DNA of 64,000 nucleotides from an uncultured Thermoplasmata archaeon (GTDB taxonomy: Archaea; Thermoplasmatota; Thermoplasmata; UBA10834): positions 29,612 through 93,611 of the forward strand of contig CAWBDD010000018.1 in the NCBI GenBank assembly GCA_963787465.1, given 5' to 3'. A program made the position numbers and the translations under genes. Position 1 is the stretch's first letter. The number at the start of each line of letters is the position of its first letter. The notes beneath the pieces are model-generated. The model worked only from the letters and a program-made list of their open reading frames with translations. It did not search any database and was not told where the DNA came from. This document shows, piece after piece, positions 13,630 through 64,000 of this stretch.

Positions 13630-14562
13630 ATGTCATCGGACGAAGGCCTTTCGAAGGGACAAGCACCGGGGAACCGGGTTGGTCCCGCCGTCAAGATGAT
13701 GGCGGTCGCAGTCGCAGCAGTCGTGATCTCAGCGGTCCTTTTCATCTACCTCAGCCCGGACTACTCCTGGGACTCGTCAGTCAGAGACACAGACGGAGAC
13801 GGGTATGCCGACGCAAATGATGCGTTCCCTGACGAACCGACAGAATGGTTCGACAGCGATGATGATGGGACCGGCGACAACTCGGACGAATTCCACGACG
13901 ATGCGTCAGAACAGACCGACACCGATGACGACGGAGTAGGCGACAACAGTGACGAATTCCCAGAGGATCCCGAGGAGTCCACTGACTCGGACGACGATGG
14001 GGTAGGGGACAACGAGGACGAGTTCCCAGACGACCCGGAGGAGACCGACGACACTGACAACGACGGGGTGGGAGACAACACCGACGAGTTCCCGGATGAC
14101 CCAGAGGAATGGGTCGACAGCGATGGAGACGGCGTCGGTGACAACTCCGATGACTACCCAGACGACCCGACGCAATGGGAGGCGGAGACTCCGACGGCAG
14201 CGATTGTGAGGACGACAATCGCCAACGGTGTCAGGATCACGATCGTGACGATAGAGCCGCAGGTCTCATGGACGCTGATCACCATTACCCTCACAGACGG
14301 CACTGATACTGCCACCTGGACGGAAATCGACGCGGGAGAGCTCGACGACGGAGTGGCCGCCATCTCAGACTGTGGGGCGCAGTCCCTGGGTTCGACCGAA
14401 GTGAATCTGACCGTATTCGATATAATGGGAGATGGCGAGATTGGCTATGCCGACTTCTTCAATCTTGTCGCCATCTCCTTCTTCGCCGGCACGACCTACA
14501 CGGTCCAGATAGTCTATGAACTCACGGGTGAACCGATAGCGACAGGGTACTTCACTGGATAG
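13630..14562 (+). CDS. membrane-anchored protein with thrombospondin type-3-like calcium-binding repeats
   Basis: N-terminal TM helix (probable start at MMAVAV, 13696). About 5 tandem D-x-D-x-DG-V-G-D-N-x-D-E-F-P-(E/D)DPEE repeats. C-terminal beta-rich domain. Confidence 0.6.
   Translation: MSSDEGLSKGQAPGNRVGPAVKMMAVAVAAVVISAVLFIYLSPDYSWDSSVRDTDGDGYADANDAFPDEPTEWFDSDDDGTGDNSDEFHDDASEQTDTDDDGVGDNSDEFPEDPEESTDSDDDGVGDNEDEFPDDPEETDDTDNDGVGDNTDEFPDDPEEWVDSDGDGVGDNSDDYPDDPTQWEAETPTAAIVRTTIANGVRITIVTIEPQVSWTLITITLTDGTDTATWTEIDAGELDDGVAAISDCGAQSLGSTEVNLTVFDIMGDGEIGYADFFNLVAISFFAGTTYTVQIVYELTGEPIATGYFTG
13845..14170. repeat. imperfect tandem repeat, about 63-66 bp unit x5 (encodes TSP3-like repeats)
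   Basis: The unit gacgacggagtaggcgacaacagtgacgaattcccagaggatcccgaggag recurs with variation about every 63-66 bp. Confidence 0.7.
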
Positions 14563-22698: not shown

Positions 22699-23309
22699 GG
22701 ATGACCAATTTGCCAATGTACCGCTCTCCCCTCTCAACTTGCCGCAGGGCAGCAGGTCAAAGACCTTCCGCCCCCGCAAGCGCTTCTCTCCGCGAAACCT
22801 CACGACACTATATTAACATGCGCTCGTGCGACAAGAGTCTGGCCGTCGAAATCGAATTAGACTGTCGATTATTGTCACGGAACATCGTCGCACGGTGATT
22901 CTTCGAGATGCGTTCAGGCTCGACGGACTCACCGCAAACCTCTTTTATAGTGGGGTCCGTATTGGACGCTCGCTAGGCTCGACCGGGACGTTCGGCGTGT
23001 CCTTGTACACCGAAATCGTCGATAGCGGGGGTGACAGCTGGGGACGTCGTAACCGAACCGGCGCCGGTCCAGTTACCGACTGTGAGGCCCTGTCCGATGG
23101 GGTTGAAGGTGGCTCTGCGTGCCTGCCGGAGGGTAGGCATCTCTGCCTTCGCTGCGGAGATCGGGTCAGGCCCTGACGGGAACAGCCTTACCGTGGACTC
23201 GCAACGCTCATCGGGAAGCGGGGCCGAGGAGGTTTCTGGGTAGCCGACGCAGGGGAGGCCGGCAACTCCAGTGGCCTAGCACTTCTTTTCCACTCACATC
23301 GGTCGATCG

Positions 23310-45729: not shown

Positions 45730-46185
45730 GTGAAACGACCGTTCATCTCCGTGCATGTCAGGGCATTCTGTCACGAGACGGAGGACCTCGCCAAGGTGGA
45801 AGGAGCCGTCCGCAGCGTCTCTGGCGACGTCGAGCTCAGGTCCAAAAGGACTGAGGGGCACCACGGCAACCACCTGACCGTCATCGAAGGAGACTTCACT
45901 GACTCAGCCGTCGCCGAGGCGGTCCTGCGGAGGCTGAGCGACGACGACCTGAGGACCTTGGTCGACACGGCGGGGCGGCGCACGGACGAATCGTGCAACT
46001 TCTTCCTCAGACTCGACAAACAGAGGGCCTGTGGAGGCGAGGCCGTGCTCACCCATTCCGACGATGCGGTCTCGGTAAGGATCAAGGTCAGCGCGTTCCC
46101 GGCGAAGTCTGAGACCGCGGTGGCAACGGTGAGAGCGTTCATCGCCGAGGTCATGAGCACCCGGGCCGGGACTGCGGCCGGGTGA
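45730..46185 (+). CDS. UPF0201/COG1325-like small RNA-binding protein (tentative)
   Basis: GTG start VKRPFISVHVRAF..ETED. About 150 aa. The pattern resembles UPF0201. From memory only. Confidence 0.35.
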   Translation: MKRPFISVHVRAFCHETEDLAKVEGAVRSVSGDVELRSKRTEGHHGNHLTVIEGDFTDSAVAEAVLRRLSDDDLRTLVDTAGRRTDESCNFFLRLDKQRACGGEAVLTHSDDAVSVRIKVSAFPAKSETAVATVRAFIAEVMSTRAGTAAG

Positions 46186-46246
46186 GGGCCGAGCGGGTGT
46201 TCGATTCATTCTTATATCCGCCAGGCATCTCACGCATGGCAAGCAT

Positions 46247-46334
46247 GCAGGGGTAGCCAAGACCGGCCAACGGCGCAAGGCTTAGGACCTTGTCCAGCAG
46301 TGGTTCCGCGGTTCGAATCCGCGCCCCTGCACCA
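46247..46334 (+). tRNA. tRNA-Leu (anticodon TAG), CCA encoded
   Basis: Acceptor GCAGGGG/CCCCTGC. Long D loop. Anticodon arm CAAGG-CTTAGGA-CCTTG. Long variable arm (CCAGCAGTGG). T arm CGCGG-TTCGAAT-CCGCG. Discriminator A, then CCA. Confidence 0.85.
46278..46332 (+). repeat. direct repeat copy 1 (inside tRNA-Leu, anticodon arm to acceptor 3' strand)
   Basis: 55 nt identical to 46810..46864. Confidence 0.9.
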
Positions 46335-46401
46335 CTGACCACACTGAGAGGGATTTAGATGCGAAAAAACCGCGACTGCCGTGCTGTCCCCAATAGGGAT
46401 T

Positions 46402-46668
46402 CTATCTTGGGGTTCTCTTTGTCCAGATAACCAGGGACACGATGAATGCGACCGGCGCAATCAAGAGAATCGTACCAAGTATCTCTTCATTCTTGTGAAT
46501 CAGAGTAATTCCAGAGATGACGCCGAGAAACAGTGCCGTGAACGCGAGTGCGCCGATGGCGGGTGGCACGGAACCCACTTTCCTTCGCCTAATCTCGGAG
46601 GATTCGCATACCTGCAAAAACCTTCCCGTTGATGGTCCGAAACCCCCGAAGATAGACATGAATGTCAC
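46402..46668 (-). CDS. hypothetical small membrane protein (within the low-GC inter-repeat segment)
   Basis: 88 aa, two TM helices. Local GC is visibly lower than the flanks. Confidence 0.35.
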   Translation of the reverse strand: MTFMSIFGGFGPSTGRFLQVCESSEIRRRKVGSVPPAIGALAFTALFLGVISGITLIHKNEEILGTILLIAPVAFIVSLVIWTKRTPR

Positions 46669-46809
46669 AGTGATACGATTGATACGCGAGTGAATATAGG
46701 TTATCGTGGACGCCCAACTATCAGGACATGCTTTTGTTACTCAGGCGAACCTACTGTGAAGTCCACGCCGTCGGAAACGTTATCAATCGCAACCACCCTA
46801 CCAAGGGGC

Positions 46810-46864
46810 AGGCTTAGGACCTTGTCCAGCAGTGGTTCCGCGGTTCGAATCCGCGCCCCTGCAC
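46810..46864 (+). repeat. direct repeat copy 2: orphan 3' half of tRNA-Leu (att-like)
   Basis: 55/55 identity with 46278..46332. Lacks the 5' half of the tRNA, so it is not a gene. Confidence 0.9.
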
Positions 46865-46978
46865 ACCTACGATTCTCCCGACGGCCGTCAATGCTCCAGA
46901 ATGCAAGGCCAGATATCGGGAATCCCGAGAAGCATTTATAGCCGATGCCGCCGGTGCATTCTCAGCGTAGGGTGGCTC

Positions 46979-47602
46979 ATGCAGTCAGACGAGATGCCCG
47001 TGTGGATGACAAGCAGGCCCCACAGGGAGATTCCGGAGAACAGAGAACCATCGAAGGTTCCGGCAATCGCCCTGCTGTTGTTGCTCGGAGTCCTGATCGC
47101 ACTCGGCGTGTATGTGGCCTTCGAACACTCGTCAGCGTTCCACATCCTCGTGATGGCAGCGGGCGCCACACTGCTCGCGTCGGTTTACCTGAGCCGTATC
47201 CAGTGTTCATGGAAGACGGTGGGAGTGTTCATCCCTGTGGCTATTGCGGTCAACTGCGTGATGGCCTACACAGTGACTGTCATCGAGAACACCGCATCCG
47301 GGGGAGTCGCATATATCGCAGGAGTCATCTTCACCGGACTCATCGGACTCCTCCTCCTAACGAGAACGAGGGCCGTACTCTCCACACGAACCAAGGCAGC
47401 TGTGATCGGAGCGGTGGCCGTTATGTGCGCTCCCGGTCCCCTGCTGTACATGTTCGTGCCGACGGAGGGGACGCTCGGGACCGTGCCAGGATGGCTCATC
47501 CTGACGAGCGTCCCGATGATGGTCGTGCTGATGGCGGCCGCGTTCGTCCTGAGTGCTCGCCATCGGTCCGAGGTCACCATGCCTCACGACAGATGGCTCT
47601 GA
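46979..47602 (+). CDS. hypothetical polytopic membrane protein
   Basis: Start at MQSDEMPVWM (the listed ORF start at 46832 lies in the repeat). About 6 TM helices. Confidence 0.5.
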   Translation: MQSDEMPVWMTSRPHREIPENREPSKVPAIALLLLLGVLIALGVYVAFEHSSAFHILVMAAGATLLASVYLSRIQCSWKTVGVFIPVAIAVNCVMAYTVTVIENTASGGVAYIAGVIFTGLIGLLLLTRTRAVLSTRTKAAVIGAVAVMCAPGPLLYMFVPTEGTLGTVPGWLILTSVPMMVVLMAAAFVLSARHRSEVTMPHDRWL

Positions 47603-47694
47603 TTTCAGCGACGCTGATCCGTCGAGCGCACCTCTGAGACGCGATGACGTGCGGGAGGCCCCGTCGAAGCGACGGGCGTGTCACTTGCTGCTCT

Positions 47695-47952
47695 TCATGG
47701 CCCTTTCGTCGAGCTCTTCGCGTCTCCCCTGCGGACGAACTCGAGGCAGCCTGCCTCGTACTCCTGGGCCGACAGGAACTTCCTGTACGTCCCCTGAGGG
47801 AAGCAGCCCCTCTGGTTCCCCCTGACCGACAGCCAGGCGCAGTGTCGGCAGGTCCGTCCGTCCCGTTTCCTGACCTCCGAGAGGAAGGCCAACTCGTCCT
47901 TGGTGTATCCCTCATCATCCTGCGGGGCCATGGAGGGTAATACGTTGCGCAC
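47695..47952 (-). CDS. hypothetical Cys-containing small protein
   Basis: 85 aa. CRHC..C..C cysteines. Confidence 0.35.
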   Translation of the reverse strand: MRNVLPSMAPQDDEGYTKDELAFLSEVRKRDGRTCRHCAWLSVRGNQRGCFPQGTYRKFLSAQEYEAGCLEFVRRGDAKSSTKGP

Positions 47953-48015: not shown

Positions 48016-48381
48016 GTGAAGTTCACTTACTGTCCCAGGTGCAAAGAGCTCAGGACCAAGCCCTGGTACGCACTCAAGGACAGGTGCGCCAGGTGCGCGG
48101 GCGACGTCGTCCTCATCCCCATACCGCCTGCGGCGATGACATACGCCGTCTACGCCCTCGTCGGGATATGCTTCGTGCTGGTCTACTACGGATCAAAGGC
48201 AGACGACAAGCTCATGGTCTATGCAGCGCTCGCAGGAGTTGTGGCCGCGATGGTCCTCCAGTTCCTCGAACTCTCGAGAGGAGAGAAGTACGCAAGGACG
48301 AGGATCAAGCCGACCAAGTCAGACGCCGCCGCCCTGAAGAAGAAGGGATGGGTCAAGGACGAGCACGGCAAGGTAGCCTGA
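48016..48381 (+). CDS. zinc-ribbon membrane protein
   Basis: CPRC...CARC ribbon followed by two TM helices. Confidence 0.45.
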   Translation: MKFTYCPRCKELRTKPWYALKDRCARCAGDVVLIPIPPAAMTYAVYALVGICFVLVYYGSKADDKLMVYAALAGVVAAMVLQFLELSRGEKYARTRIKPTKSDAAALKKKGWVKDEHGKVA

Positions 48382-49401: not shown

Positions 49402-49953
49402 ATGCGACACCACATCAGGGGACCGAGCAAGAAGCTAGCCCCGACGATTGACTCAGAGACATCGTGCCCCCACACTTTCAACGACGAGGACGGGTTCGAG
49501 CTGGAGGTCGACTGCCAGGCCTGCCCCGGCGCCAGCGACCTCGGGAACAGGAGATGCGCCTCCGGCGTCACGAACATACTCGTCACGGGCGCCCTCCCTG
49601 AGGCAATCGTGCTCAAGAGGTACATCCACAAGAGGTTCAGAGGGGGGCAGGTCGACGCCTTGCGGGCCGCCGCCGAAGAACTCTGCGCCCTCAACCGCGC
49701 GATCTCTGCCGCCACCCCCCCGTCGGACAAGGAGTGTCGGACGTGTCCAGCCAGTACCAGGCGCGCGGTCGCGTCCCTCAGGGGACACCTGCTCGACGAC
49801 CCGGTTGGCTATGCCACAGGCTACGCCCGATTCTCCGACGAGCTCAGGTCCAAGGCGTCCGCCACGACATGCGCGAGGGCGCGCGCGTGCATCGACGACA
49901 CGCTCTCGGTTAGCACCCTGGAGAAGCGCAAGGGGTGTGAACGCCGTGGCTAG
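49402..49953 (+). CDS. hypothetical Cys-rich protein (possibly the N-terminal part of the downstream ATPase)
   Basis: Protein-like composition with several C-x2-C pairs. Ends 90 nt before the ATPase reading frame picks up. Confidence 0.35.
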   Translation: MRHHIRGPSKKLAPTIDSETSCPHTFNDEDGFELEVDCQACPGASDLGNRRCASGVTNILVTGALPEAIVLKRYIHKRFRGGQVDALRAAAEELCALNRAISAATPPSDKECRTCPASTRRAVASLRGHLLDDPVGYATGYARFSDELRSKASATTCARARACIDDTLSVSTLEKRKGCERRG

Positions 49954-50041
49954 GTCTGCGCCGCCGAGGATACTCGGGACCGCGGTCCCCGCGCCAACGC
50001 CGCCAAGGAACGGACGCCCCCACCGGCCGGTCGCGGTCACC

Positions 50042-51736
50042 TCAACGCCCGCCGAGGGCCGTTACGACACCCGTCCCTGCTTCTCGCACTCGTGGGTCGA
50101 GCAGGATGCGTGCAAGCCGGGCAAGGAGGTCGCGAAGTACATCGTGGACGGGGTGCCAGTGAGGATAGTCAACAGGGAGGCCAGGAGCCACGGCGAGTAC
50201 ATCTTCGACCCTCCCGAGTACAGGCTCCCTCCCCGCCATCTCCAGACCCTCGGCGAGGCTTCGCGGGAGATCTCCGACGCCGTCCCCGCCGATGTCGAGC
50301 TCAACTCCCTTTGGATGCTCAGACCGTACATCAAGTCGAGGGCGAAGGACCTCATCTACCGGAAACTGGTCATGTCGGCCGACGAAGGGAGTGATGCGAA
50401 GGATGTCGACAGGGAGAGCGACTTCCTCGCGGACCTCCTGTGCAGGTACACGGCCGGATACGGCGCCCTCGAGATACTCCTCAAGGACCCGAACGTCCAG
50501 GACATCTACGTGGACGCACCCTCCAGCCAGACGCCTGTCGAGGTCGTGCTCAGGTCGGAGGTCGGCGGGGCGGTCCGACAGAAGTGTCGGACGAACCTGT
50601 ACGTGGGCGCGCGTGACCTGGCATCGCTCGTCTCGCGCGTGAAGTTCGAGACAGGGCAGGCCGTTCTCCGAGGCGCGACCCGTGCTGGAGGCGGACATGA
50701 CCCGGCTCGGGGCGAGGATCACTATAGTGGGCCCCCCATTGAGCGACAAGGGGCATCTCCGTCGCGATAAGGAAGCATTCGCCCGCCGCGTGGACGATGC
50801 CCGCCCTTGTGGCGAACGGCTCGTTGTCGCCGCTCCTGTCGAGCTTCCTGTGGGCGTGTGTCGTGGGCAGGAGGACCGCGCTGATCGCCGGGAGCAGGGG
50901 CGCGGGGAAGACCACGCTCCTCGGGGCCATGATGATGGAGTTCCCGCTCTCCCAGAGGATCGTGGTGATAGAAGACACCCCGGAGATACCGCTCAGGAGG
51001 CTCCAGGAGATCGGCTACGACCTCTCGTCGCTGAGGTTCACCTCGGACGGGCAGGACGACAAGGGCTCGGCCAGGGAGGCCCTCAGGGTGAGCCTTAGGA
51101 TGGGGGAGAGCGCCATCGTCATAGGCGAGGTGAGGGGCGAAGAGGCGAAGGTCCTGTACGAGAGCATGAGGGCCGGGAGCGCCGGGTCATCCGTGCTCGG
51201 GACCATCCACGGGAACTCCGCGAAGGGCGTCCTGGACAGGGCGGTCGAGGACCTCGGGGGTCTCCGAGAGGGCCTTCTCGTCCACGGACATCATCGTCGT
51301 GATCGGGCTCATGCGGTCGCCGGACGGCGCGACCTTCACCAGGAGGGTGACCCAGGTCACCGAGGTCAGGGAGGTCGATGGGAAGGTCGTTCTAGTCGAC
51401 CTCTTCGCCACCGACCCCGGATGCTCCTGCGCGAAGCCCACGGCGGAGTTCTCGCCGAGGTGCAAGACGATGATTGGCATCGCGGACGCCCTGGGCATCC
51501 ATCCCGAGTCAGCGATGGACATCGTGAAGACGCGCGCGCACGCCGACCAGATCATGTCGGAGGTCAGGCGGCGCCACCACATGCTCCGACTCCGTGCGGG
51601 TCGACTCCAACGAGTTCCTCGCCCAGGCGCTCTTCCTGCCGGAGGGGCCGGAGGCCGGGCTCGAGAGGTGGAGGGGATGGTATGCCGGGAACGGGTCGAG
51701 GTGAGGCAGTGCAAAGGCAGGGCTCCAGGTATGTGA
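50042..51736 (+). CDS. type II/IV secretion (FlaI/PilB/TadA-like) ATPase, at least 2 apparent frameshifts
   Basis: N-domain (LLKDPNVQDIYVD), ...ITIVGPPLSDKG..., Walker A (IAGSRGAGKTTLL), EDTPE, GEVRGEEA, GTIHGNSA. C-terminal region has a CxC...C cluster. The three frames join via single extra C/G bases near 50662 and 50752. Start not resolved. Confidence 0.8.
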
Positions 51737-51756
51737 GTGCATGCGCAACCCTTGCC

Positions 51757-53508
51757 ATGATGGCCGACTGGCTCGGCGCCGGCCCTGCCGAGCCCCAGGG
51801 GAGCAGGAGGGGCGAGCCGCCAGAACCCCAGCGCATGGCGACTCTGAGGAAGGACCTGGAGCTCTCGATGCTCGGGGTCGGGGCGGGGACGGTGGCACGT
51901 GCCGCGAAGACCGCGGCGGTCCTGTCCGCCGCCGCGCTCGCATCCGCGACCGCCCTCGCGCTCCTCTTCCTGGGCACGACGCACGCGCTGGCACTGGCAT
52001 TCCTCACGATGGTAGTCCCGCTCCTCGCGGCCGAGGCCGTCAAGAGCTACCCTTCCGCGGTGGCTGCAAGGCGCGCCGCGGCGGTCCTCAAGGACTCGAC
52101 GGGGGCGGCCAACCTGATGATCATGAGCCTCAGGCACCAACCGTCGATACCGAAAGCGATCAGGTTCGCGACCAGCCGCAAGGACGAGTTCTCCAAGGAG
52201 CTGAGGAGGTGCACCTGGAACGTGGTCATGGGTCGACACCAGAGCTTCGAGGACGCCCTGCAGTCGCTCGGAGACAGGTGGGCGCAGCACAGCACTGAGC
52301 TGAAGGCCGCCCTCAACTCGATGGTCACCGCATCGTGCGAGGCGACCGAGGAGGGGAAGAGGAGGGCGCTGGACCGCGCGAACAGATCCATGGTGGCAGG
52401 GGCGAGGCGCAGGATAGAGGACTACGCGCTCTCGCTCTCGACCCCGAGCATGGTGATGTTCGGGATGGGCATCCTGCTTCCGATCATGGTCGGTTCCTTC
52501 CTGCCTATGATGTCGTGGGACCTGTGGTCCCCCGCGTCCGGCGGCCCGCCGTCGGAAGGGTCCTCCTCGAGCATCATCATCCAGACCGCGTTCATCATGA
52601 ATCTCGTGTTCCCGCTCGTTGCGTTCGTGGTGGCGAACGACGCCGCATCGAAGCACCCGCTCGAGAGGGCGGCCTCCGGTACACGGTACGGCGCCGCCGT
52701 CGGTATGACGGTCCCTGCGATCGCGGCGGCATCCTCCGCTGCGATGCTGCTCACCTCCCTGCTCCTCCTTGATGGGATGTGGATGGCCGCCTGCGTGCTC
52801 ATGTCCGTCATCCTGCCGCTCGCGGCCGTGCTGATGGCCATCGGACGCGGCGACCCTCGGTCGCCCAGCGGGAGCACGAGGACGGGGCTGGAGGACGGGC
52901 TGTTCCGGACCGGTGCCAGGATGCTCGAGGGCGAGAACTTCGAGACCGCCCTCAGGAGGTCGGCAGAGGACGTCGGGAGGGAGGACGGCATGTCGATGCG
53001 GCGGCTCGCGGTCGGGTCGTGCGTCCTCGGCCTGGACCTGGGCCAGGCGCTCTCGGAGGACAGGTCCCTGGCGGGGTCGAACGCCGCCGAGGCGTTCATG
53101 GTTGTCCGCGAGGCGGCCAGGAAGGACGAGCGCTCCGCGGGGCTGCTGGCGATGGACATCGCGGCCTATCTGCGGGACCTCAGGGAGCTCGAGTCGTCGT
53201 TGAAGAGCAGGCTCCGGCCGACCGTGTCGATGATGCGCATGACGGCGCACGTGCTCGGGCCGGTGGTGCTCGGCGTCACCTACTCGATATACCTGACCCT
53301 GTCGGGTATGCTGGACGGCCAGGGGATGGATCCCAGCTGGCTCTTCCTGATCCTCGGGGCCTTCCTCGCGGAGACCAACCTGGCGGTGACCTACTTCGTG
53401 TGGGGGATCCAAGGCAGGCCCGGGAAGAAGGCGCTGGCACGTTCGGCGGGGGCATGCCTGCTCGTGTCAGAACTCGTGTACACGGCCACGGCGGTGTTGG
53501 CCAGCTGA
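51757..53508 (+). CDS. FlaJ/TadC-like (T2SS F-domain) polytopic membrane protein
   Basis: 584 aa from MMADWLG. Two repeats of the GspF-like helical/TM architecture. Located immediately after the secretion ATPase. Confidence 0.7.
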   Translation: MMADWLGAGPAEPQGSRRGEPPEPQRMATLRKDLELSMLGVGAGTVARAAKTAAVLSAAALASATALALLFLGTTHALALAFLTMVVPLLAAEAVKSYPSAVAARRAAAVLKDSTGAANLMIMSLRHQPSIPKAIRFATSRKDEFSKELRRCTWNVVMGRHQSFEDALQSLGDRWAQHSTELKAALNSMVTASCEATEEGKRRALDRANRSMVAGARRRIEDYALSLSTPSMVMFGMGILLPIMVGSFLPMMSWDLWSPASGGPPSEGSSSSIIIQTAFIMNLVFPLVAFVVANDAASKHPLERAASGTRYGAAVGMTVPAIAAASSAAMLLTSLLLLDGMWMAACVLMSVILPLAAVLMAIGRGDPRSPSGSTRTGLEDGLFRTGARMLEGENFETALRRSAEDVGREDGMSMRRLAVGSCVLGLDLGQALSEDRSLAGSNAAEAFMVVREAARKDERSAGLLAMDIAAYLRDLRELESSLKSRLRPTVSMMRMTAHVLGPVVLGVTYSIYLTLSGMLDGQGMDPSWLFLILGAFLAETNLAVTYFVWGIQGRPGKKALARSAGACLLVSELVYTATAVLAS

Positions 53509-58338: not shown

Positions 58339-59655
58339 TCAGAAGTCCGTCAGGCTCCTCTTCCCCCTTCCGCCGGGCTTCGAGCCCGTCCTGCCAGCGC
58401 GGTCAGAGGGCCAGCTGCCCTTCACTGCCCTCACCTTCGCGACGATCTCGGAGACCTCCTTCGAATCCGGTTCGGTCCCGAGCAGATAGGCAATGTCACC
58501 CTCATCCAGCCCCGCACCGGTCGCCAGCCTCACCACGAAGTCCTTGTCCCTCCTCGCGAGCTCGGACAGGTACGGGAGGGTGGATTCCGCCACCCGTCTC
58601 GGCGATGCGTGGAGCACGGCTCCCAGCTTCCTGCACACGGATTCCCGGATCGTCCTCTGCCCCTTTGCGCGGGAGAGGACCATGAACTGCTGGGGGAAAC
58701 CGTAGTCTTCCACATGTGGCCGCGGGCTCGCGCCCCTCGACAGAGCCACACCACCCGTCATCAAGTCCTTCGCATGGGCCCAGAACCTGTAGTGTTGGAG
58801 CTTCCGCGTCCTCCCCAGATATACATCCGAACGAGAAAGCGCATCGAAGGCCGCGGCGACCTCCTCCGGCGTCCTGAACTCCCGGGTGATGCCCTCCTCG
58901 ATCCACTTCTCGAGCTCGTCCGGCGTCACGTCCAGGTCCATGGTCGCGTCCCTCGCGGCCTTCAACGTCCTTGCGCCAAAGACGCTCCTAAGCGCCACTG
59001 CCAGCTCCTTCTCCTGGTTCCTCTTACCCAGGGCGCCGGTGTCGCTCGACGAGACCGTCGACCTTCCCTCGACGAGCATCTGCAGGTCGTTGACCGCGGC
59101 CCGTAGGTCCCCCCCCAGCGTTGCCAGCTATGCTCTCCAGAGGCCCTTGCTCGACCGAGATGCCTCGACGCGGGCAACTCCTCGTCAGGACGTCGACGAC
59201 CACGCGTTTATCAGCGCCCATAGTCGTCTACGATGAGAATGATGGGCTGGCTCGATGACTTGATGACGTCCACTATCGCTTTCGCGCCGCCGTAGTCCCC
59301 TCCGTGGCGCGCCTTGTCCAGGACTATTAGCTTCATCCTGCCCTGGGCCGTTGACTTGAACTCCCCGTCGAGGGTCAACTGTCTGGGCATACCGCACCCT
59401 GGCGATGCGTTCAATTCGACTCGGCGTTCCTGTGGTCAGACGCGTTCATCGACCATGTCCCAGCCATAGTCGTTGCGCCAACGCCGAGCTGAGTCTTGCC
59501 TATTCCGGGGCTCCCCCATCAACACGAGCGCCTTCTTCTGAGGGATGCCTCTGACGATGCATCAGCCCACCGCTTCATGTGCGAACGGCTTTCAGACCTC
59601 GGCAAGAGTCTTGGGCTCTTGGTCCACTTTCGCATCTCGACCGCGCGATAGGGCA
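58339..59655 (-). pseudogene. rfcL: replication factor C large subunit, left (inverted) copy, broken into at least 3 frames
   Basis: C-terminal 246 aa intact (..TPDELEKWIEEGI..). The middle ([20 protein letters not shown]) and N-terminus ([11 protein letters not shown]) lie in other frames. Mirror image of 63465..64000. Confidence 0.6.
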
Positions 59656-61527
59656 TCAAGGACTTAATCCCGCGGGGTCTCGTGGCGCGCTTCTATTGGC
59701 AGGGGTGCGGCAGCCCCTGTTCAGACCGACATTTAACCAAATATATGTGTAAAATGTTTATATGGAAATAGTTTAGCATGATGCTACAGTCGCAGAGCAG
59801 CCAAGGAGCTCGAGTGGTTCGGACTGGCGGAAACCCCCTCCTCGTCCCGAGCCGTCCCAGCCTCCCCTGATTCATCAGACCGTGATGCCCGGGAGGAGAC
59901 GTCTGGACAGGTGCCCTTGCGGTCGTCCATCGTGAGGTATGCGCGACCTCGATGTGGGAGTGCCCCAAGGGCGGAGAACCTGAGGTCTATGCTAATAGTC
60001 AGTGCCTGGACGGCGTGAGTGTGTCTTAGGAACTGCTGCGGGTGGCGCTTATCTGGCTCGATGCCGACCTTCTCGGCGTAGTTGGAGACCAGCCGCTCCA
60101 CCTGCCGCCTGGACAGCGGGCCACGCTTGTTCGAGACGAAGAGCGGATCTTCCGGTTCTTCCTCGTGCCGATATAGTCGTGGAGCATCGTCTTGGTCCAA
60201 CTGTTATTTTTGGAACCTCGCGGCTCCTGAGCCTCTTCGCCCTCTGAATCGTTACCTCGCTCGATGCTCACCGATTGTCAAGGACGAATGGCTCGCCGAC
60301 CCTCATCCCCGTTTCGTACATGAGTCGCAATTGCAATTACAATTGGATCGTGCATCGTCTAGGAGCTTCGAGCAACGCCTTTAGCTCGTCCTCCTTGAGA
60401 TACTTTCTCATGGTAGAATCCATTGTTGGACCATTGTCGGACAAAGCATCGGTTTATGTCTATATAAAAATGACGCATTTTGGGTCTAAAATACGCTGCA
60501 GCCCCCTCTACCCCCTCCCCACCCCAAGTTACGACAACTTATACCCGTTTGTTGCCGTCTCGTCCGTGGCTCATGTCCAGAAGCCCCAACTCATGAGGAA
60601 TTCGTGCTACTCCGTATCACGGTTCTGGAAAAAGGGGCTAAAACCCCCCTAGGAGACACCGAAAAAAGGGGATCAAGCCCGGAGATTACCCTTTGCCCCC
60701 TACGGGGGCAGGCACGGCCCTGAATACATCATATCGATTGATTTTCATAGTATGTACCGCAAGGACCGCAGTTTGTATACCTCATACCTAAACGGCCGTC
60801 CGACGACGGCGGACGGCGTGCTATGTCACTGCACGACACGGACGACTTACTCAGCGTGAGCCACGCTAACACGTCGCTATATCTCGCGGTGAGGACGCAT
60901 ACGATTGGTGATGAGAGGCTAGACCCCAATTTGTTGACGGCCGGGCCCAAACTTAGGACCCCGGTGGGTAACCCCCAGACAGCCAGCACCCTGCCAGAGC
61001 GCATATTCCCTCGAGAATGCGAACCCATAGAGCCACCGTGCCTAACATCACAGCGCATGCACTGAGGCGACAATATGGTACACATAGCATTTGTAAATGT
61101 AGTTGTGCATCTCCAAATTCTTGTATATGTACTGCATATAATGCACCTTGTCGGGGTCTGCCTATCAAATACAAGAATCTCGAATAACGGAGCGAAGGCT
61201 CTAATACGAAATCACGCTCGAACAGGCGAGGGAATTACGCCGAGCAAAAGATCATCGCACTCTCCACTTCTTCAGAGGACCATCTGGGTGTCATCTGAGT
61301 TTCTCTCGTGGACATTCTCCAGGAACAGTACAATTAAATCTGGGAGGTCCGCGTGGCCAGCACCCGAAGAGACTGCGCAAGCCGAGGCACAGGATTCGGA
61401 GGACGGATTTGTCGAGGCACAGCGCATTTCGACCCCTCTAATAACACGGGCGCCTTGGCAGGGGAAGCGACAGAAGAGTGCGGCGGTCGTTCCGCGCTTC
61501 ATGATGGCCGGAAGTGAGTCCATGGTC
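59130..61527. repeat. left arm of giant palindrome (inverted repeat)
   Basis: Reverse complement matches 61543..64000 at roughly 95% with scattered indels and substitutions. The arm probably extends left to 58339. Confidence 0.9.
59784..60411 (-). pseudogene. degenerate inverted copy of the small tyrosine recombinase
   Basis: Segments NSWTKTMLHDYIGTRKNRK and DPLFVSNKRGPLSRRQVERLVSNYAEKVGIEPDKRHP are identical to the right-hand recombinase but interrupted by several indels. Confidence 0.55.
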
Positions 61528-62613
61528 AGACTCGGCAGCCTGGACCATGGACTCACTTCCGGCATCATGAAGCGCGGAACGACCGCCGCACTCTTCTGTC
61601 GCTTCCCCTCAAGGCGCCCGTGCTATTTAGAGGGGTCGAAATGCGCTGTGCCTCGACAAATCCGTCCTCCGAATCCTGTGCCCTCACTGCGCATCTCTTC
61701 GGGTGCTGGCCACGCGGACCTCCCAGATTTAATTGTACTGTTCCCTGGAGAATGTCCACGAGAGAGAAACCAGATGACACCCAGATGGTCCATCTGGAGG
61801 ATCGAGGAGTGTATGCGATGGTCGGTTTTCCTCGCGTAATTCCCTCGCCTGTTCGAGCGTGATTTCGTATTAGAGCCTTCGCTCCGTTACTCGAGATTCT
61901 TGTATTGATAGGCGGCCCGACAAGGTGCATTATATGCAGTACATATACAAGAATTTGGAGATGCGCAACTACATTTACAAATGCTATGTGTACCATATTG
62001 TCGCCTCGGTGCATACGCTGTGATGTTAGGCACGGTGGCTCTCTGCGGAATGGGTTCGCATTCTCGAGGGAATATGCGCTCTGGCAGGGTGCTGGCTGGA
62101 TGTCTGGCTGCCCACGGGTGTGACCGTTGGGCCGGCGGATCAATTGGGGTCTAGCCTCTCATCACCAATCGTATGCGTCCTGAATCTCGCGGAGTGTCGC
62201 GACGTGTTAGCGTGGCTCACGCTGAGTAAGTCGTCCGTGTCGTGCGGTGACATAGCACGCCGTCCGCCGTCGTCGGACGGCATTTTAGGTATGAGGTATA
62301 CAAACTGCGGTGCTTGCGGTACATACTATGAAAATCAATCGATATGATGTATTCAGGGCCCTGCCTTGCCCCCGTAGGGGGCAAAGGGTGATCCGAGGGC
62401 TTAGAATCCCCTTTTTTCGGTGTCTCCTAGGGGGGTTTTAGCCCCTTTTTTCAGAACCGTGATACGGAGTAGCACGAATTCCTCATGAGTTGGGGTCTGG
62501 ACATAGCGCCCCACGGACGAGACGGCAACAAATAGGGTATAAGTTGTCGTTTTCACTAGGGGTGGGGAGGGGGTAGAGGGGGCTCAGGGCGTTTTAGACC
62601 CAAAATGCGTCAT

Positions 62614-62624
62614 TTTTATATAGA
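62614..62624 (+). promoter_or_regulatory. TATA box (TTTTTATATAG) upstream of recombinase
   Basis: About 57 nt upstream of the ATG at 62681. Confidence 0.4.
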
Positions 62625-62680
62625 CATAAACCGATGCTTTGTCGGACAATCGTCCAACAGGTAAGGGATGGGAACCTACC

Positions 62681-63334
62681 ATGAGAAAGTATCTCAAGGA
62701 GGACGAGCTAAAGGCGTTGCTCGAAGCTCCTAGACGGATGCGCGATCGTCTGATCATCAAACTCATGTACGAAACGGGGATGAGGGTCGGCGAGCTAGCG
62801 TCCTTGACAATCGGTGACGTGGACCTCGAGTCGAGCGAGGTAACGATTCAGAGGGCGAAGAGGCATGAGGAGGGCCGCAAGGTCCCGATCATCAACAGTT
62901 GGACCAAGACGATGCTCCACGACTATATCGGCACGAGGAAGAACCGGAAGGATCCGCTCTTCGTCTCGAACAAGCGTGGCCCGCTGTCCAGGCGGCAGGT
63001 GGAGCGGCTGGTCTCCAACTACGCCGAGAAGGTCGGCATCGAGCCAGATAAGCGCCACCCGCACGTCCTAAGACACACTCACGCCGTCCAGGCACTCAAG
63101 TCTGGCATAGACCTCAGGACTCTGCAGCAGAACCTGGGGCACTCCAGCATCGAGGTCACGGCCATATACCTCACGATGGACATCGACGACCGCAAGGAGC
63201 AGTACTCCAAGCATCCTCTCCCGGGCATGGCGGATTCTGATGAATCAGGGGAGGCTGGGACGGCTCGGGACGAGGAGGGGGTTTCCGTCCACTCGAACCA
63301 CTCGAGCTCCTTCGTGCTCTCAAGTGATGTATAG
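62681..63334 (+). CDS. small tyrosine recombinase, catalytic domain only (no N-terminal core-binding domain)
   Basis: 217 aa from MRKYLKEDELKALLEAP. Tyrosine-recombinase catalytic boxes: R (MRDRLIIKLMYETGMRVGEL), HVLRHTHA, RTLQQNLGHSSIEVTAIYL (Tyr). Acidic C-terminal tail. Confidence 0.8.
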   Translation: MRKYLKEDELKALLEAPRRMRDRLIIKLMYETGMRVGELASLTIGDVDLESSEVTIQRAKRHEEGRKVPIINSWTKTMLHDYIGTRKNRKDPLFVSNKRGPLSRRQVERLVSNYAEKVGIEPDKRHPHVLRHTHAVQALKSGIDLRTLQQNLGHSSIEVTAIYLTMDIDDRKEQYSKHPLPGMADSDESGEAGTARDEEGVSVHSNHSSSFVLSSDV

Positions 63335-63464
63335 CATCGTGCTAAACTATTTCCATATAAACATTTTACACATATATTTGTAAATGTCAGTGCTGAACAG
63401 GGGCTGCCGCACCCCTGCCGATGAACATTTTCGCAGACCCCGCGGGATTAATTCATATTCCTTG

Positions 63465-64000
63465 ATGCCCTATCGCGCGGTCGAGATGCCGGAAGAGTGG
63501 ACCGAGAAGTACAGACCCAAGACTCTTGCCGAGGTCATGGGCAACGCTGAAGCCGTTCGCAGCATGAAGCGGTGGGCTGATGCATGGTCCAGAGGCATCC
63601 CTCAGAAGAAGGCGCTCGTGTTGATGGGGGAGCCCGGAATAGGCAAGACCAGCTCGGCGTTGGCGCTGGCCAACGACTATGGCTGGGACATGGTCGAGAT
63701 GAACGCGTCCGACCACAGGAACGCCGAGTCGATCAAACGCGTCGCAGGCCAGGGTGCGGTATCCCAGACGTTGACCCTCGACGGGGAGTTCAAGTCAACG
63801 GCCCAGGGCAGGATGAAGCTAATAGTCCTGGACGAGGCGGACAACCTGTTCGGCCGCGAGGACTACGGCGGCGCGAAAGCGATAGTGGACGTCATCAAGT
63901 CATCGAGCCAGCCCATCATTCTCATCGTCAACGACTACTACGAGCTGACCAGGAAGGCGTCCGCGCTGAAGTCGCTCTCGGAATCCGTGGTGTTCAGGCG
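63465..64000 (+). CDS. rfcL: replication factor C large subunit (5' part; runs off window end)
   Basis: [21 protein letters not shown]...[19 protein letters not shown]...NASD...[10 protein letters not shown], in one frame. Confidence 0.8.

Follow-up and report, generated by a model that had tools for sequence, protein, structure and literature searches.

An integrase-less 477-bp cassette between tRNA-Leu(TAG)-derived repeats, probably attL and attR, in an uncultured Thermoplasmata archaeon

The 3' part of tRNA-Leu(TAG) is repeated exactly around a foreign cargo

The 64,000-nt stretch of DNA analysed here (hereafter the window; contig CAWBDD010000018.1 of an uncultured Thermoplasmata archaeon) carries an intact tRNA-Leu(TAG) gene with an encoded CCA at 46247-46334 (+ strand), identified by ARAGORN and by the Rfam model RF00005 (50.2 bits, 46247-46331). 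The 3' part of this gene occurs a second time downstream, and the two copies enclose a short cargo of foreign composition that we call cassette X. A repeat search showed an exact 55-nt direct repeat: copy 1 (46278-46332, + strand) lies within the functional tRNA on the presumed attL side, and copy 2 (46810-46864, + strand), a displaced tRNA 3' part and the presumed attR, matches it at 55 of 55 positions. This is the duplication, from the anticodon arm to the 3' end, that a first-pass annotation of the sequence had described. The repeated block starts 3 nt into the 5' strand of the anticodon stem and ends at discriminator +1. A 22-mer taken from it occurred twice in the window, against 0.00 occurrences expected from 100 shuffles, and no third copy was found in the window at up to 3 mismatches. 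Copy 2 lacks the 5' half of a tRNA and was called as a tRNA by neither ARAGORN nor Rfam; it should not be annotated as one.

When the whole window was scanned with Rfam at the gathering threshold, a tRNA-Ala and a signal recognition particle RNA (22971-23281) were reported and tRNA-Leu was missed. In a 5-kb scan tRNA-Leu reached its 50.2 bits (gathering threshold 29), so that the omission from the whole-window scan reflects a speed-filter miss.

Cassette X carries one conserved gene

Cassette X spans 46333-46809. The first-pass annotation had given the spacer as 476 bp of low-GC DNA; its length is 477 bp, and its GC content is indeed low (0.509 compared with 0.636 over the surrounding 15.5 kb, the genome as a whole being 63% GC). 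It is absent from most relatives, and homologues with the same ends exist in others (see below). Neither the list of open reading frames (ORFs), nor domain searches, nor comparison to the integrase-bearing element described below revealed an integrase or integrase fragment in this interval. As expected from the first reading of the sequence, the only conserved ORF encodes a small membrane protein. This ORF, orf88 (46402-46668, - strand), encodes 88 aa from a GTG at 46668, or 85 aa (46402-46659) from an alternative ATG at 46659. The protein begins with an N-terminal motif, GFGPSTGR..VCESSE, followed by two predicted hydrophobic membrane helices.

The reading frame of orf88 is kept in 8 loci, where indels are in-frame, and the ratio of nonsynonymous to synonymous substitution rates (dN/dS) is approximately 0.3-0.4, which indicates that the gene is under purifying selection. 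Among 5.8 billion proteins, the homologues of orf88 formed only 4 clusters. Neither orf88 nor orf207, the first gene past copy 2, had a match in Pfam, PHROGs or NCBIfam, and cassette X had no match in a phage collection. A putative archaeal TATA-like box (CCTATATT, 46692-46699, - strand) lies approximately 33 nt upstream of the orf88 ATG, and the TATAGGTTATC block at this position is invariant among the window and the related loci L006 and L010. Cassette X looks like a single-gene unit with its own putative promoter, and orf88 may be expressed.

The same tRNA position is empty in some relatives and occupied in others

The site was compared with 14 loci from species-representative genomes, 56 from metagenomes and several more obtained via protein look-ups (designated by L and a number). 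All relatives are metagenome assemblies, many of them short contigs, and host relationships were drawn from one or two marker genes. The last 51 nt of the tRNA were 100% identical over 70 related loci, and the exact tRNA 3' half was seen only in metagenome-assembled genomes labelled Thermoplasmata or Thermoplasmatota. An unoccupied tRNA-Leu site, which the first-pass annotation had proposed to look for in related genomes, was found in 50 of 72 loci (some of them redundant): there orf85, a conserved small gene, comes at most 60 nt after the tRNA, with nothing between.

A second copy of the tRNA 3' part together with an orf88 cassette was found in the window and in L010, L006/L060, L017 and L036. 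The homologues in L010, L006/L060 and L017 have both ends in common with cassette X, from the first position past the tRNA to the last one preceding copy 2; the L016 cassette has the same left end, and its contig ends short of the right end. What lies downstream of the cassette varies: the window and L010 have orf207 there, L060 has a zinc-ribbon gene, and L017 has one for a squalene-cyclase-like protein. Other cargo occupies the site elsewhere. A second tRNA 3' copy accompanies 651 bp in L026, encoding a 153-aa zinc-ribbon membrane protein, 528 bp in L051/L053, 3092 bp in L074 and 836 bp in L071; the L071 cargo, which is also present in L032, specifies a zinc-ribbon membrane protein of 198 aa. 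At least five cargo types besides X use the same att (attachment) block, in keeping with the earlier suggestion of a repeatedly targeted site. In six cargo types (X and those of L026, L036, L051, L071 and L074) the identical stretch opens at A/GGGCTTAGG, and its first position in the tRNA varies by no more than 1 nt.

Pairs of closely related loci showed how the two states differ. L010 corresponds to L002 plus a 486-bp insertion, with flanks that are 86-87% identical and 39 bp of the L002 tRNA end aligning at both junctions. L074, with flanks 98.7-99.3% identical to those of L072, has in addition the 3.1-kb element and one repeat; the att sequence aligns at both ends. L071 and L075, 94-97% identical in their flanks, differ by the presence or absence of the 836-bp cassette. 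L006/L060 is 97% identical to L002 up to the last tRNA base, after which the DNA is unlike until orf85, and L032 is 97.5% identical to L003 over the 6.8 kb leading to the tRNA and then divergent. Such pairs are what site-specific gain and loss at a single fixed position would leave, and the process appears to be still operating among very close genomes.

Copy 2 is perfect in the window, matches at 54 of 55 positions in L017 and is reduced to approximately 76-91% identity in L010, L060 and L036. These states bear on whether the second copy is an assembly artefact or a functional split tRNA half, explanations whose probability we regard as practically negligible. Same-species short-read contigs do break in the repeat, and one of them, L081, begins at window position 46835, as might be seen if the duplication were a product of assembly; the same architecture, however, was assembled independently across several studies and species. 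A split or permuted archaeal tRNA is not indicated either: the tRNA gene is complete, and copy 2 has neither a 5' half nor a complementary leader and has decayed in relatives.

A tyrosine integrase family adjoins tRNA-Leu genes in the same clade

The 3092-bp element of L074 encodes a PF00589 tyrosine integrase (E 4.8e-35; 283-309 aa; HxxR...Y) that lies 23 nt past the tRNA, inside perfect 55-bp repeats identical to the block in the window. Besides the integrase, the element specifies a zinc-ribbon and acidic protein and two small membrane proteins, as well as two proteins that matched nothing; none of its ORFs was recognised as a gene for conjugation or replication. About a dozen close homologues (70-88% identity) and a second tier near 50% make up the family of this integrase. 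In L078, from a more distant host, an 80%-identical integrase directly follows a tRNA-Leu(TAG) of different sequence, and the PF01877/oxidoreductase surroundings are the same. In L079 a 52%-identical integrase adjoins tRNA-Leu(CAG), beside a D5N/DUF5906 primase, and in L035 an N-terminal integrase fragment is left beside the tRNA. A further close homologue stands at the start of contig L077, which also carries an MmeI-like restriction-modification gene. Judged by these contexts, the family looks specific for tRNA-Leu genes. Outside its own family, the nearest phage and plasmid matches of the L074 integrase are generic XerC/D-like proteins of at most 30% identity, and it scores below the cutoff for XerA and integron-integrase models.

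Several cassettes retain traces of such an element. At its left end, the L026 cargo preserves a remnant of the C-terminal end of a 201-aa ORF of the L074 element, and L036 combines that remnant with the orf88 module and an L026-like right end. Because L026 and L036 keep these remnants, at least some mini-cassettes are deletion derivatives of integrase-bearing elements; they have lost the integrase-proximal part, and a small membrane-protein gene takes up the att-distal slot.

These remnants, together with the fragment in L035, raise the question of whether a full integrase-bearing element integrated in the window lineage itself and then shrank in place to 477 bp, a history in which the small size of the cassette would carry no information on its own mobility. 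Integrated elements are well known to decay until only a remnant between att sites is left (PMC5704250, PMC9897764). The window cassette, however, holds no integrase remnant, and its perfect repeats and unameliorated composition would have left little time for stepwise decay. Moreover, the same unit is found with both ends in L010, L060 and L017, and with its left end in L016, in differing downstream contexts, and separate decay events would not produce the same ends. We consider shrinkage in this lineage decidedly unlikely.

Cassette X bears signs of a recent and horizontal arrival

The codon usage of orf88 departs from that of its surroundings: its GC content at third codon positions (GC3) is 0.59 in the window, compared with 0.75-0.84 for the neighbouring genes. 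Together with the GC content of the cassette, this bears on the composition check that had been proposed in the first-pass annotation, and the cargo is foreign by both measures. Between the window and L016, orf88 is 90.7% and the promoter segment 90.9% identical, whereas identity in the adjacent host DNA falls to 79.7% in PORg, 58% in the PF01877 gene and 68% in the intergenic DNA. The number of synonymous substitutions per synonymous site (dS) for the same pair is 0.19 in orf88, 1.35 in the PF01877 gene and 1.18 in PORg, and overall the dS of orf88 is 3-7 times below that of flanking host genes. By host markers L016 groups with the cassette-less L003 and not near the window, and the cassette tree disagrees with these markers (window and L016 are 85% identical in orf88 and 46% in PF01877). 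If copy 2 of the window dated from the split between the window and L016 cassettes, approximately 5 of its 55 positions should carry a substitution under neutrality; none does. Because copy 2 is perfect, the dS of orf88 is low, its GC3 is foreign and the host markers disagree, the comparison indicates that the window lineage gained cassette X recently and horizontally. That the ends are the same in different lineages speaks for a single origin of the 477-bp form and for its later spread in this form. The route of this spread could have been an integrase acting in trans or homologous recombination across the tRNA-derived repeats.

The second of these routes can be extended to an origin in which no integrase takes part: the cassette would move by homologous patching through the tRNA and the 55-bp copy, or as a circle formed by recombination between the repeats that re-enters by a single crossover in the tRNA. 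The identity of the tRNA 3' half over the 70 loci would provide homology arms in each potential recipient, cassette X has no integrase of its own, and the tract transferred between the window and L016 is confined to the cassette, the adjacent genes being only 58-80% identical. The arms would nevertheless be very short, approximately 31 nt (the tRNA 5' part) and 55 nt. Integrase-free movement would also be favoured by variable repeat boundaries, which were not seen; the block starts at one anticodon-stem position in all cargo types, including the integrase-bearing one, which points to a defined attP and not to random crossovers. As the clade also has a dedicated tRNA-Leu integrase family, we regard movement without any integrase as very unlikely.

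A different reading of the locus is that the duplication is ancient and vertically inherited, as a structural or regulatory part of the tRNA locus. The first-pass annotation had stated that such a feature would be indicated if relatives shared the duplication along with a conserved sequence between the copies. Taken literally, relatives of this kind exist (L010, L006/L060, L017 and L036), so that several species share the arrangement, and orf88 is under apparent purifying selection. The conclusion that the feature is ancient was nevertheless not borne out. It is contradicted by the patchy distribution of the cassette, by the difference in occupancy between sister genomes that are 94-99% identical, by the conflict between the cassette tree and the host markers, by the low dS and foreign composition, and by the free decay of copy 2 in the older cassettes of L010, L060 and L036, where no compensatory T-stem changes accompany it. 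We consider an ancient structural duplication highly improbable.

Integration into the tRNA gene is the probable origin of the locus

The explanation that we consider probable is that a site-specific integration into tRNA-Leu(TAG) left the two 55-bp copies as its attL and attR, and that cassette X is an integrase-less remnant. The general form of this explanation, the footprint of integrase-mediated insertion reduced to a remnant, had been put forward in the first-pass annotation and is strengthened by the empty sites, the exact pairs and the L074 element with its identical 55-bp block. The locus has the features of such a footprint: the tRNA 3' part is repeated with one gene intact, the cargo is foreign and, in relatives, the empty site equals the occupied one minus the cargo and one repeat. 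An integrase within the element, which is absent from the cassette of the window, is found in L074 and in L078.

According to this model, a circular DNA whose attP copies the tRNA from the anticodon stem to the 3' end would be recombined with the chromosomal tRNA gene by a tyrosine integrase. The functional tRNA (46247-46334) would thereby be rebuilt with the 3' part supplied by the element, and the original 3' part would be moved to the far end (46810-46864). What remains is the 477-bp cassette without integrase, carrying one small gene for a two-helix membrane protein with its own putative promoter. On this reading cassette X belongs to a family of elements specific for this tRNA in a clade of uncultured Thermoplasmata, with an autonomous form of approximately 3.1 kb that has a XerA/XerCD-like (HxxR) tyrosine integrase beside attL, and with integrase-less derivatives of 0.5-0.9 kb and a single gene each at the same site in other genomes. 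For the cassette to move again, an integrase would have to act in trans, or the repeats would have to recombine homologously. The model predicts the empty-site junction for this genome as the full tRNA followed by ACCTACGATTCTCCC, and the circular junction of a 532-bp circle as ...CCCTACCAAGGGGC, the 55-mer and CACTGACCACACTGAG.

Several observations weigh against this interpretation. The window cassette contains neither an integrase nor a fragment of one, and the only integrase of the window (62639-63334) is 30% identical to the L074 type. The first-pass annotation had proposed a search for viruses carrying the same att sequence; there were 0 matches to the 55-mer or to a 30-mer from it among IMG/VR viral contigs, and no free circular, viral or plasmid form with the 55-bp att was found in IMG/VR or, for the cassette, in the phage collection. 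Exact-sequence look-ups for same-species contigs returned none with an empty site, only contigs that break in or before the repeat. Furthermore, orf88 also occurs beyond an att-bounded unit: after orf207 in L018, with no second copy detectable, in L019/L020 without a nearby tRNA, and in L049 without a detectable att'. Finally, the dS of orf88 lies under that of the flanks in every pair, close ones included, and constraint on synonymous sites may be a partial cause of its low values.

A bolder version of the model treats tRNA-Leu(TAG) as an integron-like landing pad, at which sub-kb, promoter-bearing cassettes with single genes for small membrane or zinc-ribbon proteins and without a recombinase would be inserted, excised, swapped and stacked as circles of approximately 0.5-0.9 kb by a dedicated tRNA-Leu integrase acting in trans, the unit in the window being still active and not a dead scar. 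We regard this version as unlikely. If it were true that the mini-cassettes move on their own, the site would constitute a simple natural cassette-exchange system in archaea.

Known integrative systems share some features of the locus

Cis-mobilisable elements (CIMEs) are bacterial integrative elements that have retained their att sites and lost their integration and transfer genes (PMC5704250). Cassette X resembles them in lying without an integrase between attL and attR in the 3' end of a tRNA gene, while integrase-bearing relatives use the same site; a tandem with a second cassette, another feature in common, is only suggested in the relative L060. Both att sites are retained around an integrase-less cargo with one ORF, whereas we found neither descent from integrative and conjugative or integrative and mobilisable elements (ICEs and IMEs) nor cis mobilisation by accretion. 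The bacterial ICEs and IMEs move by conjugation, whereas here the host is an archaeon and the approximately 3.1-kb L074 parent is without conjugation or replication genes; the cassettes are also far smaller (0.5-0.9 kb, one gene). By analogy, cassette X may work like a CIME and is best filed as CIME-like, not as a strict member in the bacterial sense.

Among archaea, captured DNA in chromosomes and partial tRNA genes have been described (She et al. 2001, "Gene capture in archaeal chromosomes", via PMC8371274; PMC9897764 for tRNA fragments in Thermococcaceae). The locus is similar in that a partial tRNA marks the far end of tRNA-integrated DNA and the captured gene stays chromosomal. It differs from the classic archaeal cases of SSV-type integration, in which attP lies within the integrase gene, so that int is split into int(N) and int(C) at the two ends. 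The L074-type integrase is not of this "suicidal" type, because its gene is intact beside attL after integration; no ORF enters either att copy of the window as an integrase fragment, and none crosses the right-hand att of L074. The motif of the L074 integrase is HxxR, unlike the KxxR of the SSV1 type and the YxxR of the pNOB8 type (motifs from PMC8371274).

Tycheposons and tRNA-proximal islands of Prochlorococcus (bioRxiv 10.1101/2020.12.28.424599) are likewise associated with tyrosine recombinases at tRNA genes and leave partial tRNAs; same-site stacking, degenerate cargo-only remnants and occupancy that varies between very close genomes are further points in common. They belong to another domain of life, the site studied here holds 0-2 tiny cassettes and not a large island, and the likeness is one of architecture. 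The cassettes of integrons are comparable in size (0.5-0.9 kb), in having one gene and one recombination site per unit with the recombinase elsewhere, and in the possibility of tandem stacking. Here, however, the site is a tRNA fragment and not a folded attC, the cassette has its own putative promoter and some cassettes are visibly deletion derivatives of a larger element. No attC, IntI or attI/Pc platform was seen.

The mechanism is thus a familiar one, and cassette X is a well-controlled example of archaeal single-gene capture at tRNA genes. In the literature searched we found no description of a tRNA-Leu integrase family in uncultured Thermoplasmata, of its approximately 3.1-kb autonomous element or of integrase-less sub-kb cassettes that come and go among genomes with 94-99% identity. 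This family-level picture is of more interest than the single scar, and is still an extension of a known mechanism.

Genes and other features around the site

The genes around the site are archaeal and include subunits of a 2-oxoacid:ferredoxin oxidoreductase, a PF01877 RNA-binding protein, a proteasome subunit, FttA and a wyosine enzyme. The PF01877 gene (45730-46185) precedes tRNA-Leu. Beyond copy 2, the first gene is orf207 (46979-47602, + strand), which encodes a multi-pass membrane protein and adjoins the tRNA in L002 and L007, both of which are without cassette X; its distribution indicates a variable host-side gene outside the att-bounded cassette. Its open frame reaches upstream into copy 2 (GTG at 46832), and the same-species contig L081 was automatically called from there as 255 aa. 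Homologues place the probable true start at ATG 46979, and the start should not be annotated inside copy 2. The possibility that orf207 is itself an older cassette was rejected, as no att copy after it was detected above shuffles. A search for a degenerate third att past orf207 in the window, L002, L007, L010 and L014 gave nothing above shuffled controls, and a candidate third att in L060 was marginal, its score being matched by 24 of 500 shuffles.

The far side of the variable site is anchored by orf85 (47695-47952, - strand), which encodes a conserved small CxxC protein found by tblastn in essentially all relatives; in those with an empty site its stop codon lies 10-40 nt past the tRNA. It is followed by orf121 (48016-48381, + strand), encoding a zinc ribbon and a membrane helix, which is the first gene of a secretion/pilus-type ATPase locus by conserved synteny. 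The order orf121, T2SSE ATPase, DUF835 is kept in relatives. The first-pass annotation had placed a type IV pilus-like locus just beyond the second repeat copy; the locus is downstream, and three small genes (orf207, orf85 and orf121) lie between. Its position beside the tRNA in all relatives indicates that it is part of the core genome and outside the insertion.

The short gap between tRNA-Leu and orf85 (in the region 46186-47700 of the window) contains unrelated genes in different relatives in which a second tRNA copy was undetected (L002, L003, L007, L013, L014, L039 and L054). These include orf207 (L002, L007), a gene for a squalene-cyclase-like protein of approximately 350 aa (e.g. L003), and genes for DUF438/PAS-like (150 aa) and SRPBCC-like (140 aa) proteins. 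In L039, the closest relative of the window, the gap holds a gene for a 388-aa secreted protein, and between L060 and L002, which are 97% identical, the entire content of the gap has been exchanged. In L019 (ENA contig k141_2903559, 200-1400) the orf88 homologue is one of several consecutive small genes for membrane and zinc-ribbon proteins, without a tRNA in the vicinity; between these genes, a motif of approximately 22 nt (TTCCTTCCCTATGGTCTTTTCC and variants) occurs four times.

Compared with L081, which comes from another sample and is 99.1% identical, the window has four single-base insertions (50657, 50750, 51255 and 51565, within 49946-51700), all in the T2SSE-type ATPase gene. In L081 this gene is an intact 584-aa ORF; in the window it reads as two ORFs (49448-50770 and 50797-53508), the second fused with the next gene downstream. 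The window copy would be either pseudogenised or affected by local assembly errors.

Further along the window, an imperfect palindrome (59221-63937) consists of two arms of approximately 2.3 kb whose complementarity is patchy (83-100%). The arms surround a centre near 61535, the innermost ones being 56 nt apart, and the region has a low GC content (approximately 50-57%). One arm carries an intact gene for a 231-aa XerA-like tyrosine recombinase (62639-63334), and the other its degraded mirror image (59784-60200, - strand). This recombinase was considered as a partner for cassette X and rejected, being only 30% identical to the L074 type and without the N-terminal domain. Because the divergence between the arms is patchy, a simple fold-back assembly artefact is disfavoured, and the structure could have arisen by inverted duplication or be a segment capable of inversion or movement. 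At 13785-14169, five to six tandem 66-nt units (62-75% identical) lie inside an ORF (13630-14562) and encode an acidic repeat of the D-G-V-G-D-N type.

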